A DNA stretch of 55,804 nucleotides from an uncultured Desulfurococcales archaeon (GTDB lineage Archaea; Thermoproteota; Thermoprotei_A; EX4484-217-1), in the NCBI GenBank assembly GCA_964496035.1, contig CAZBXI010000002.1, forward strand, positions 26,054-81,857, read 5' to 3'. The notes under the pieces are model-generated. The model was not told the DNA's origin. It made no database searches and saw only the letters and a program-made list of their open reading frames with translations. The position numbers and the translations under genes are program-made. Shown piece after piece: positions 29,810 through 31,152 of the stretch (positions are counted from its first letter, which is position 1; every line of letters begins with the position of its first letter).

Positions 29810-29817
29810 TTTAAAAA
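29810..29817 (+). promoter_or_regulatory. candidate TATA box for the tRNA 5' part
   Basis: TTTAAAAA preceded by purine-rich AAAG. Its 3' end lies 30 nt upstream of tRNA position 1 (29848), which would give a short leader. Confidence 0.35.
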
Positions 29818-29871
29818 ATGAATAGTAAATAGTGTTTAAAATAGAGAAGCCGGGTCGTCTAGCGGTCAAGG

Positions 29872-30873
29872 ATGCGGGGCTTTGCGGACCGTCGGCTATC
29901 CTCTTCCTATCCCCCTTCTTTACATGAACATAGATTAGCAAGCAGAGAAACTATTCTTAAGAAAGTCAAGAGTATCTTGAAGGAATCCCTAAGAAATTAT
30001 AGGAATGACCTAAAAAATAGAACTTTTCTGCATAGTAAGAATTTTAAGACAGAATACGTGATAAATTCCTATAGTGGTTTAGCAAACATTATACATAATA
30101 TGATCAATGAAAGCATAAGATACACAGTAAATTCCATTATTCCCCATATACTCAATTTGTTGAGGCAGGGAAATTACAACCTATATGTGAAAACATGTAT
30201 GAAAACCATTAACTTTAAAATTAACGCAGACCGTTGCATATTGAGAATAGGATACTTTGACGGAAATATTATAATGGACATTCACTTTAAAAATTTAAAA
30301 ACGATCAAAATTAAGTCTGAAATTTCTGCAAAACCATGTAATTATGAGGCTTTCATAGGTTTCTTGCTTAGCGATGGAGCTATTAAGGGAAAGAACATAA
30401 GAATGCGTACAACAAAACATTGGCAAGCAGTATTGTGGATTTTAATAAATTCGCCAAACGTATTTAGCTTAAGGGTAGACTCAGTAACTGTTTCCACTAA
30501 AGGAGAGCTGAGACCAGCTTTGAATATTTCTAGTCCCAGGATCTTTGAAGTTACAACTAAAAGTTTGTTATTATTAAACAATCCTATCTCATGGTTTTTC
30601 TACATTCTAGGTGACGGATCTGTTGGTTATAGGAAAATAGAAATTTCATGTAGCCTAAACTACTTCGAAAAATTAGCTAATAAGCTTAAAGCGTTAGGCT
30701 ATAAACCTAAGCTAAGACCCGAGAAGAGATTAATTGTTCTGACTGGGAATTCTATGAGAAAATTCTCTGAATGGATAGTAGCAAACGTGATTAAATGTGG
30801 CTTAAATGAACCTCTTGAGCACTTAAAAGTAAGTAAATGGTTAGAAATGAAACATTATGCAATGATGAGGTAA
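29872..30873 (+). CDS. double-motif LAGLIDADG homing-endonuclease-like protein (maximal ORF; true start probably internal, e.g. TTG 29977, GTG 30058 or ATG 30100)
   Basis: Motif 1 is FIGFLLSDGAI (aa 161-171, nt 30352-30384). Motif 2 is FYILGDGSVGY (aa 243-253, nt 30598-30630). They are ~80 aa apart and both keep the D-G acidic position. The first 13-14 nt of the ORF lie in the tRNA 5' exon. Confidence 0.75.
   Translation: MRGFADRRLSSSYPPSLHEHRLASRETILKKVKSILKESLRNYRNDLKNRTFLHSKNFKTEYVINSYSGLANIIHNMINESIRYTVNSIIPHILNLLRQGNYNLYVKTCMKTINFKINADRCILRIGYFDGNIIMDIHFKNLKTIKIKSEISAKPCNYEAFIGFLLSDGAIKGKNIRMRTTKHWQAVLWILINSPNVFSLRVDSVTVSTKGELRPALNISSPRIFEVTTKSLLLLNNPISWFFYILGDGSVGYRKIEISCSLNYFEKLANKLKALGYKPKLRPEKRLIVLTGNSMRKFSEWIVANVIKCGLNEPLEHLKVSKWLEMKHYAMMR
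29882..29900 (+). repeat. left arm of the 19-bp inverted repeat closing the intervening sequence
   Basis: TTGCGGACCGTCGGCTATC, with 12 of 19 positions G/C. It includes anticodon nucleotides 34-36. Confidence 0.95.
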
Positions 30874-30877
30874 AGTA

Positions 30878-30885
30878 TTTATATA
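30878..30885 (+). promoter_or_regulatory. candidate internal TATA box in front of the tRNA 3' part
   Basis: TTTATATA is an exact TTTAWATA consensus preceded by AAAGTA. Its 3' end is 25 nt upstream of the first base (30910) of the complementary leader. Confidence 0.3.
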
Positions 30886-30909
30886 AGGTCAAAAGTACAA
30901 CTGATACAT

Positions 30910-30928
30910 GGTAGCCGACGGTCCGCAA
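30910..30928 (+). repeat. right arm of the 19-bp inverted repeat
   Basis: GGTAGCCGACGGTCCGCAA pairs with 29882-29900 through 18 Watson-Crick pairs and 1 G-U pair. Confidence 0.95.
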
Positions 30929-31152
30929 CCCGACTCTGGCGGGGGAACCGGAGAACCCCCGTGACCGGGGTTCGAATCCCCGCCCGGCTACCAACAATTA
31001 CCTATAGCACTACAATTACCGCTTAATTGCTGGAAGTTGCAGCGTAATTGAATTATTAATATGAGTTTTCGGTTTAATTATCATATTCTTCAATTTTGAA
31101 AAGCAATATTTAATTATCATGGCTTCTTATACTATGAAGGTAGGGATGAATA

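Follow-up and report, generated by a model that had tools for sequence, protein, structure and literature searches.

A tRNA-Gln(CUG) gene with two bulge-helix-bulge introns, one very probably housing a divergent LAGLIDADG gene, in an uncultured Desulfurococcales archaeon

A tRNA gene in three exons

The 55,804-nucleotide (nt) stretch of contig CAZBXI010000002.1 (assembly GCA_964496035.1) considered here, referred to as the window, comes from an uncultured Desulfurococcales archaeon and includes on its forward strand a locus that is very probably the only tRNA-Gln(CUG) gene of its genome, interrupted by two archaeal bulge-helix-bulge (BHB) introns, the first of which houses a divergent double-LAGLIDADG gene. 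The exons, the introns with their predicted borders and the open reading frame (ORF) of the first intron are arranged as follows.

29848 to 29880, + strand: exon 1, tRNA-Gln positions 1 to 32 (A1 to C32), identical to the 5' part of the tRNA-Gln genes of relatives.
29881 to 30934, + strand: predicted intron 1, 1054 nt, at tRNA position 32/33, from BHB geometry and from the exact match of the spliced product with an intronless orthologue.
30058 to 30873, + strand: ORF of intron 1, a divergent double-LAGLIDADG protein of 271 amino acids from a GTG at 30058, from motifs, profile, structure matches and substitution rates.
30935 to 30939, + strand: exon 2, a 5-nt micro-exon (U33 to G37) with the anticodon CUG at 30936 to 30938, giving the loop CUCUGGC of relatives' intronless tRNA-Gln(CUG) genes.
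30940 to 30955, + strand: predicted intron 2, 16 nt, at the canonical position 37/38, with the same architecture in 20 other tRNA-Gln genes.
30956 to 30993, + strand: exon 3, tRNA positions 38 to 76 with CCA encoded, from comparison with relatives and the spliced product.

Standard annotation does not recover this gene. A default ARAGORN scan and Rfam at gathering score reported no tRNA or RNA family anywhere in the window, and ARAGORN with introns allowed found the gene with one 1070-nt intron and a nonsense anticodon, as 'tRNA-Stop(tta)'. Its identity emerges from comparison with related genomes, 40 of which were searched with the whole locus and yielded 27 tRNA-Gln genes. The mature anticodon loop is CU(C/U)UGGC in every one of them, with G37 and C38 throughout, and the intron-free genes read CUUUGGC or CUCUGGC. 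In the window, CUCUGG lies at 30934 to 30939, downstream of the 3' arm of a long helix described below, and the three syntenic orthologues with conserved flanks, one from the same genus (L004) and two from a sister genus (L006, L028), all have an internal CUCUGG after a short insert. Because of this family-wide loop and the internal CUCUGG of the syntenic orthologues, the window gene is read as tRNA-Gln(CUG) with two introns.

Removal of both introns leaves a sequence identical at 73 of 73 positions to the intronless tRNA-Gln(CUG) of the related genome G015; ARAGORN names this doubly spliced sequence tRNA-Gln(ctg), and the family-wide loop CUCUGGC is obtained only if two introns are removed. 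An A1-U72 acceptor pair is evident from direct reading of the gene. The window gene is the sole CUG gene found in an assembly that is 89 % complete, and the only other tRNA-Gln gene of the genome, on contig C3, has the anticodon UUG.

The clamp around the intron ORF

The elements that enclose intron 1 lie immediately inside and across its two borders.

29875 to 29878, + strand: 5' strand of the central 4-base-pair (bp) helix H of intron 1 (C27 to G30, CGGG), pairing with CCCG at 30929 to 30932 in minimum-free-energy (MFE) folds.
29879 to 29881, + strand: 5' bulge of the intron-1 BHB (G31, C32, U), predicted cut between 29880 and 29881; three unpaired nt in the MFE fold, GC/N in all orthologues (the slash marks the cut).
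29882 to 29900, + strand: 5' arm of a 19-bp helix (inner helix h' of the intron-1 BHB), from a repeat finder, folding, shuffles and covarying arms.
30910 to 30928, + strand: 3' arm of the 19-bp helix, from the repeat finder and folding.
30929 to 30932, + strand: 3' strand CCCG of helix H, from MFE folds and multi-locus comparison.
30933 to 30935, + strand: 3' bulge (A, C, U33), predicted cut between 30934 and 30935; A and C unpaired in the MFE fold.

The 19-bp helix was the starting point of a preliminary description of this DNA, and its account of the arms holds: a repeat finder returns 17 perfect pairs, direct reading adds a U-G and a C-G pair, and the resulting 18 Watson-Crick pairs and one G-U pair have G or C at 12 of 19 positions, as had been stated. 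Shuffling a 1281-nt stretch 200 times gave perfect, non-overlapping inverted repeats with a maximum length of 8-13 nt, well short of the 17 observed. Unconstrained MFE folds of the full 1146-nt precursor and of a mini-precursor both form helix H, the GCU bulge and the 19-bp helix.

A BHB motif presents, on each strand, a helix, four nucleotides of the central helix H, three bulge nucleotides and a further helix, and is cut after the second bulge nucleotide. Both introns of the window gene have the core of such a motif, namely two opposite 3-nt bulges with a 4-bp helix between them. In intron 1 the long helix starts directly after the bulge on both strands, and it is for this reason taken as the inner helix h' of a canonical core, not as a trap for the anticodon. 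The claim that U34, U35 and G36 are sequestered in the helix thus falls, as 29882 to 29884 are the start of an intron arm and the anticodon CUG lies at 30936 to 30938; so does the half-canonical splice motif with a G36-C-G bulge on the 5' side, where there is no splice site and the 32/33 core, with its predicted cut at 29880/29881, is fully canonical. Stacked on the BHB core, the 19-bp helix would bring together splice sites that are 1054 nt apart. The ORF fills nearly all of intron 1 between the arms, and the gene sits in the loop of the helix. The helix itself is an ordinary BHB clamp. What sets the locus apart is that the host is a tRNA gene, that the site is 32/33, that the micro-exon measures only 5 nt and that the endonuclease is both divergent and conserved.

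Two overlapping motifs and a probable order of splicing

The 27 nt that separate the helix from the 3' part of the gene, correctly counted in the preliminary description, are positions 30929 to 30955 and contain the whole of intron 2. Its BHB consists of a helix H formed by CUCU (30934 to 30937) and GGAG (30950 to 30953), bulges GG/C and AA/C, the anticodon stem as outer helix h and an inner helix h' of 2 bp, with predicted cuts at 30939/30940 and 30955/30956. Every 37/38 intron among the relatives' tRNA-Gln genes likewise has a 4-bp H flanked by 3-nt bulges. Much of this had been glimpsed before: the AAC bulge at 30954 to 30956 and the cut before C38 were right, the local hairpin of CUCUGG with CCGGAG is real and is the BHB of intron 2, and GGAG was correctly located, its partner belonging to a second, canonical 37/38 intron and not to a competing fold of a single insert.

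The two motifs are incompatible, in that the first uses C27 to G30 and leaves C30934 and U30935 unpaired, while the second needs the anticodon stem and pairs both of these nucleotides. With the helix present, the conformer containing the first motif has the lower energy, by about 9 kcal/mol at 37 C and by about 6 kcal/mol at 80 C. Because the motifs share nucleotides and the intron-1 fold is the more stable, intron 1 is probably excised first. Mutually exclusive folds had indeed been proposed to order the cleavages; they exist, between the motifs of two introns and not between the two cuts of one.

The anatomy of the locus, its conservation and its covariation are observed directly in the sequences; the course of cleavage, splicing order and homing given here is a proposed one. 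A crenarchaeal-type splicing endonuclease built from two paralogues would cut in each bulge, and RtcB would then ligate the exons. Intron 1 would probably go first, after which the anticodon stem could form and present intron 2; C30934, the last base of intron 1, may mimic C32, such that the hairpin of the second motif would be pre-formed and become complete upon ligation. The genome encodes two EndA paralogues (PF01974, both above cut-off; C3:40856-41083 and C60:896-1138) and an RtcB above cut-off, and two EndA paralogues are what is expected of the broad-specificity crenarchaeal enzyme (PMC4090602, PMC3241643).

The RtcB gene is itself of interest. It is a single open frame of 954 amino acids on contig C6 (9285-11993; L052, L053) in which a large insert separates Pfam positions ~64 and ~47, and this insert, which is intein-sized, looks like an intein with a LAGLIDADG-type domain.

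The protein encoded in intron 1

The ORF is read as a divergent double-LAGLIDADG protein with an N-terminal extension of about 150 amino acids. The motifs GFLLSDG and YILGDGS represent two LAGLIDADG helices, each with an acidic residue at its end, and the motif Asp is kept throughout the protein alignment (A1), homologues of 21-38 % identity included. No significant match to the window ORF was found in Pfam and none among PDB sequences; its homologue P0004 reaches E=7.7e-4 and 20.1 bits against LAGLIDADG_3 (cut-off 22.5), and 41 of 100 language-model look-alikes (Atlas) are LAGLIDADG_3 clusters. In a structural comparison with residues 157-329 of an AlphaFold model with a mean predicted local distance difference test (pLDDT) score of 44, LAGLIDADG proteins made up 7 of the top 10 matches, with Z scores of 8.6 for WhiA, 7.3 for PI-PfuI, 7.3 for I-Tsp061I and 6.6 for I-DmoI; these matches lend weak support, because a Z under 8 may mean just a common arrangement. 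The ratio of non-synonymous to synonymous substitution rates (dN/dS) against two variant contigs is 0.28 and 0.15, and the protein is accordingly under purifying selection.

Upstream of the GTG the frame has no stop across the 5' arm and as far back as an exon-1 ATG at 29872 (333 amino acids), and the variant contig L042 is open in the same way, but this is probably chance because a TGA closes it in the distant homologue L043. Within its own genome the window ORF weakly matches the RtcB insert, and neither BLASTP nor hhalign of the ORF against the other intron LAGLIDADG proteins of the genome was significant. A word-indexed protein search returned two near-identical proteins and no others, and a search of 300 further genomes of the class for the ORF family gave no match at E<=1e-5; an exhaustive HMMER search with the ORF did find distant relatives. 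The farthest of these, P0007 and P0008 (L045, L046; ENA ERZ1669415), are 27 % identical, about 500 amino acids long and outside any tRNA-Gln intron, one of them lying about 200 nt downstream of a tRNA-Met gene. The protein of intron 1 most likely is, or once was, a homing endonuclease, which would spread the intron into intron-free tRNA-Gln(CUG) genes; the dN/dS values, the patchy distribution of the intron and a syntenic metagenome relative devoid of it speak for this indirectly.

Orthologous introns and covariation

Syntenic orthologues in related genomes carry the same two introns in a miniature form, of 37 and 17 nt in G001 and of 29 and 16 nt in G003 and G005, with identical bulges and H helix; the mini-versions of intron 1 thus span 29-37 nt. 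A 9-nt arm, ACCGUCGGC, is common to intron 1 of the window and to the 29-nt mini-intron of G003 and G005, which suggests common descent of the two. Among the distant relatives of the ORF, three loci in other assemblies (L043, L047, L049) have introns of 1146-1321 nt at position 32/33 of tRNA-Gln(CUG), each with an ORF 32-40 % identical to that of the window.

Across eight loci all 4 of 4 pairs of helix H are kept, with a single change from G-C to G-U. The first ten pairs of h' are kept in four long-intron lineages (the window with L042, L043, L047 and L049) despite differing sequences, and from 5 (L004) to 10 (L006, L028) are kept in the mini-introns. Pair h'1 occurs as U-A, C-G or G-C, and L043 and L047 differ by two adjacent compensatory changes. 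Covariation in homologous loci, which the preliminary description had put forward as a check, is therefore present: the complementary arms are conserved with compensatory changes. At shorter range, the 97 % identical variant contig L042 has unchanged exons and arms, and L041 (93 % identical), from which the 5' part is missing, differs once, in the intron-2 3' bulge, where AA/C has become AC/C.

Turnover of long introns in tRNA-Gln and other genes

The distribution of the 32/33 intron among relatives is patchy. A syntenic relative from a vent metagenome, with an upstream flank about 90 % identical, has no 32/33 intron and instead a long 37/38 intron with a different 15-bp clamp, and in G004 a 37/38 intron of 959 nt encloses a LAGLIDADG gene that is antisense and broken. 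The tRNA-Gln(UUG) gene of the window's own genome (C3:51082-51831; L023:283-1028) contains a 674-nt canonical 37/38 intron with a 17-bp closing helix and an intact antisense double-LAGLIDADG ORF (Pfam LAGLIDADG_3, E=1e-11), of which a 271-nt remnant persists at the same site in G002. The tRNA-Gln family thus spans every stage, from intronless genes through mini-introns of 14-48 nt and introns of 0.27-1.3 kb, most of them with intact or broken LAGLIDADG genes, to separated half-genes.

Outside this family, the same genome has at C10:21551-22702 (L040) an A1-U72 tRNA with the initiator-like anticodon CAU and an insert of ~1.07 kb, closed by an 11-bp GC helix and encoding in sense a 314-amino-acid LAGLIDADG_3 ORF (E=9e-6); this tRNA may have more than one intron.

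Alternative interpretations

Several observations weigh against a two-intron gene with an intron-encoded endonuclease. The splice junctions are predicted positions, set by BHB geometry and the identity of the product. Intron 1 has a weak outer helix h beside its 3' bulge, amounting at most to G26-U33 or to the 2 bp of the MFE fold, and the motif is on this account relaxed on its outer side and strict in its core and inner side. The Pfam LAGLIDADG_3 profile matches the window ORF below threshold (E=0.15, 12.8 bits, cut-off 22.5), and AlphaFold returned a single-sequence model with a pLDDT of 37 and a nine-sequence model with a mean pLDDT of 44, reaching 70-84 only at residues 250-300. In metagenome variants, 1-nt deletions (about 30294; 30011-30012) split the ORF into a 141-amino-acid N-terminal piece (P0003) and a 224-amino-acid C-terminal LAGLIDADG piece (P0002); the extension of about 150 amino acids may thus form a module that can be detached, or decay of the gene may be under way in some strains. 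Finally, an exact TATA box before the 3' arm suggests that the 3' half of the gene may be transcribed separately too.

29810 to 29817, + strand: TATA-like box TTTAAAAA, 30 nt upstream of tRNA position 1, a 7/8 match to TTTAWATA and a putative promoter.
30878 to 30885, + strand: exact TATA box TTTATATA (TTTAWATA), ending 24 nt before the 3' arm of the helix, a candidate internal promoter of the 3' half.

The last of these points leads to the most serious alternative, a split tRNA gene arranged in cis, in which the second of two transcripts would start from the box at 30878 to 30885 and the halves would be joined in trans through the 19-bp helix, as in Nanoarchaeum, with the BHB anatomy unchanged. 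Exact TTTAWATA sites are rarer than expected, with 10 in 55.8 kb against 24, and TTTATATA is one of them; in three other long tRNA-Gln introns (L023, L010, L005) a TATA-like box likewise precedes the 3' arm by 23-25 nt, though those of L023 and L005 could instead serve the antisense endonuclease gene, while in the distant L043, L047 and L049 the boxes match at only 6-7 of 8 positions and at variable distance. Downstream of the 5' arm, L023 and L005 have a strong T-rich run and the window gene only a weak one, TTCTTT. The helix is of the kind formed by GC-rich complementary leaders and trailers and abuts the BHB core.

Fully separated tRNA-Gln halves do occur among the relatives. In G023 a UUG and a CUG 5' half share a single 3' half, the three loci (L031, L032, L014) being separated so that the 5' halves are 46 kb and about 0.9 Mb away from it, and the leaders are complementary and GA/CU-rich; G039 has a split tRNA-Gln(CUG) with halves 267 kb apart and complementary leaders of ~30 nt (L033, L008); neither is in the split-tRNA list of PMC3218864. 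The tRNA-Gln(UUG) of Nanoarchaeum equitans is joined at 32/33 (Chan et al., PMC3218864), and trans-spliced halves adjacent on the same strand are known from Aeropyrum pernix (PMC3218864). Set against these parallels, the window gene has its two parts on the same strand and separated by a sense ORF, and a cis-arranged split gene is unlikely here, albeit by no means far-fetched. The likeness to split-tRNA leaders drawn in the preliminary description is borne out by the N. equitans junction, the halves of G023 and G039 and the TATA box; the large insert itself is nonetheless a normally shaped archaeal intron.

That the tRNA gene is dead, disrupted by a mobile element and no longer expressed, is very improbable. 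With the genome 89 % complete another tRNA-Gln(CUG) could be unassembled, but all exons and both BHB motifs are intact, exons and arms are unchanged in L042 with a single intron-2 bulge change in the partial L041, and the arrangement is kept, with covariation, in distant relatives. Slighter still is the probability of the gene first proposed for this locus, a tRNA-Gln(UUG) with a single insert of about 1070 nt, its anticodon in the helix, a canonical 3' splice site and an aberrant 5' one. CUUUG does follow the anticodon stem at 29880 to 29884, intron-permitting ARAGORN places its single intron there, albeit with a nonsense anticodon, and the spliced versions still fold as tRNA-Gln(ttg). Such a product, however, would have A37 or C37, in contrast to the G37-C38 of all 27 genes from relatives, it would give no account of CUCUGG and the second BHB, the genome would hold two UUG genes and no CUG, and the syntenic orthologues are CUG genes with two introns; the family-wide loop and the 73/73 product accordingly replace it with CUG and two introns. 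Self-splicing as a group I or II intron, of the sort seen in anticodon loops of bacterial tRNAs, can be set aside almost entirely, since, for all that LAGLIDADG-bearing group I introns are known from bacterial tRNA anticodon loops and archaeal rRNA genes (PMC6125680), no Rfam family reaches gathering score anywhere in the window, the ORF takes nearly all the space between the arms, and orthologous mini-introns of 29-37 nt at the same site cannot be ribozymes.

Relation to known introns and split genes

The closest parallels to the two-intron gene are archaeal rRNA BHB introns with LAGLIDADG genes, such as those encoding I-DmoI (in Desulfurococcus 23S), I-Tsp061I and I-PogI (reviewed in PMC4496867). 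Like these, intron 1 has a protein-spliced BHB core, a long helix closing a loop with a LAGLIDADG gene, ORF-less hairpin mini-versions in relatives and a patchy distribution. Unlike them, it resides in a tRNA gene, at 32/33 in the anticodon loop and with a second intron adjoining, and its protein is very divergent (below the Pfam threshold) and has the ~150-residue N-terminal extension.

To our knowledge, described tRNA introns are short and without a protein gene. Intron 1 differs from those described in crenarchaeal tRNAs in its 1054 nt with a conserved ORF, as does the gene in its middle exon of just 5 nt. In other respects it resembles the crenarchaeal tRNA genes with several introns at non-canonical positions, as summarized in PMC4090602 from Marck and Grosjean 2003 and Sugahara 2007 and 2008 and in the A. 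pernix EndA study (PMC3241643): it has two BHB introns, a non-canonical position that uses anticodon-stem nucleotides in an alternative fold, and two EndA paralogues in its genome. With split tRNAs (N. equitans tRNA-Gln(UUG); Desulfurococcales tRNA-Asp and tRNA-Lys; PMC3218864) it shares a GC-rich helix of at least 13 bp beside the BHB and a TATA box before the 3' arm, and with the N. equitans gene also the 32/33 junction and the amino-acid family; in contrast to split tRNAs, its parts share a strand and are separated by 1 kb that includes an ORF.

Literature searches, with many subscription papers outside their reach, returned no report of a homing-endonuclease gene in an archaeal tRNA intron, the matches being rRNA-intron, group I and general papers, and the word 'homing' is absent from a 2014 review of tRNA introns.

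Implications

The origin of archaeal tRNA introns, their moves to non-canonical positions and their tie to split tRNA genes form a long-standing question, and the prevailing view has tRNA introns as short and devoid of a mobility gene. The conserved endonuclease lineage at 32/33 in distant genomes makes the spread of tRNA introns by homing endonucleases directly testable. Because standard tRNA finders miss or mis-call the gene, genomes of this kind appear to be without tRNA-Gln(CUG). It is possible, if on balance improbable, that intron 1 represents an old mobile lineage of endonuclease-carrying BHB introns specific to tRNA-Gln 32/33, the junction at which the tRNA-Gln of Nanoarchaeum is split, and that, with its 19-bp clamp and an internal TATA box for the 3' half, it is a transitional form, still extant, linking tRNA introns to split genes. 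If this were true, homing-endonuclease introns would create both non-canonical tRNA introns, as mini-introns after loss of the ORF, and split tRNAs.

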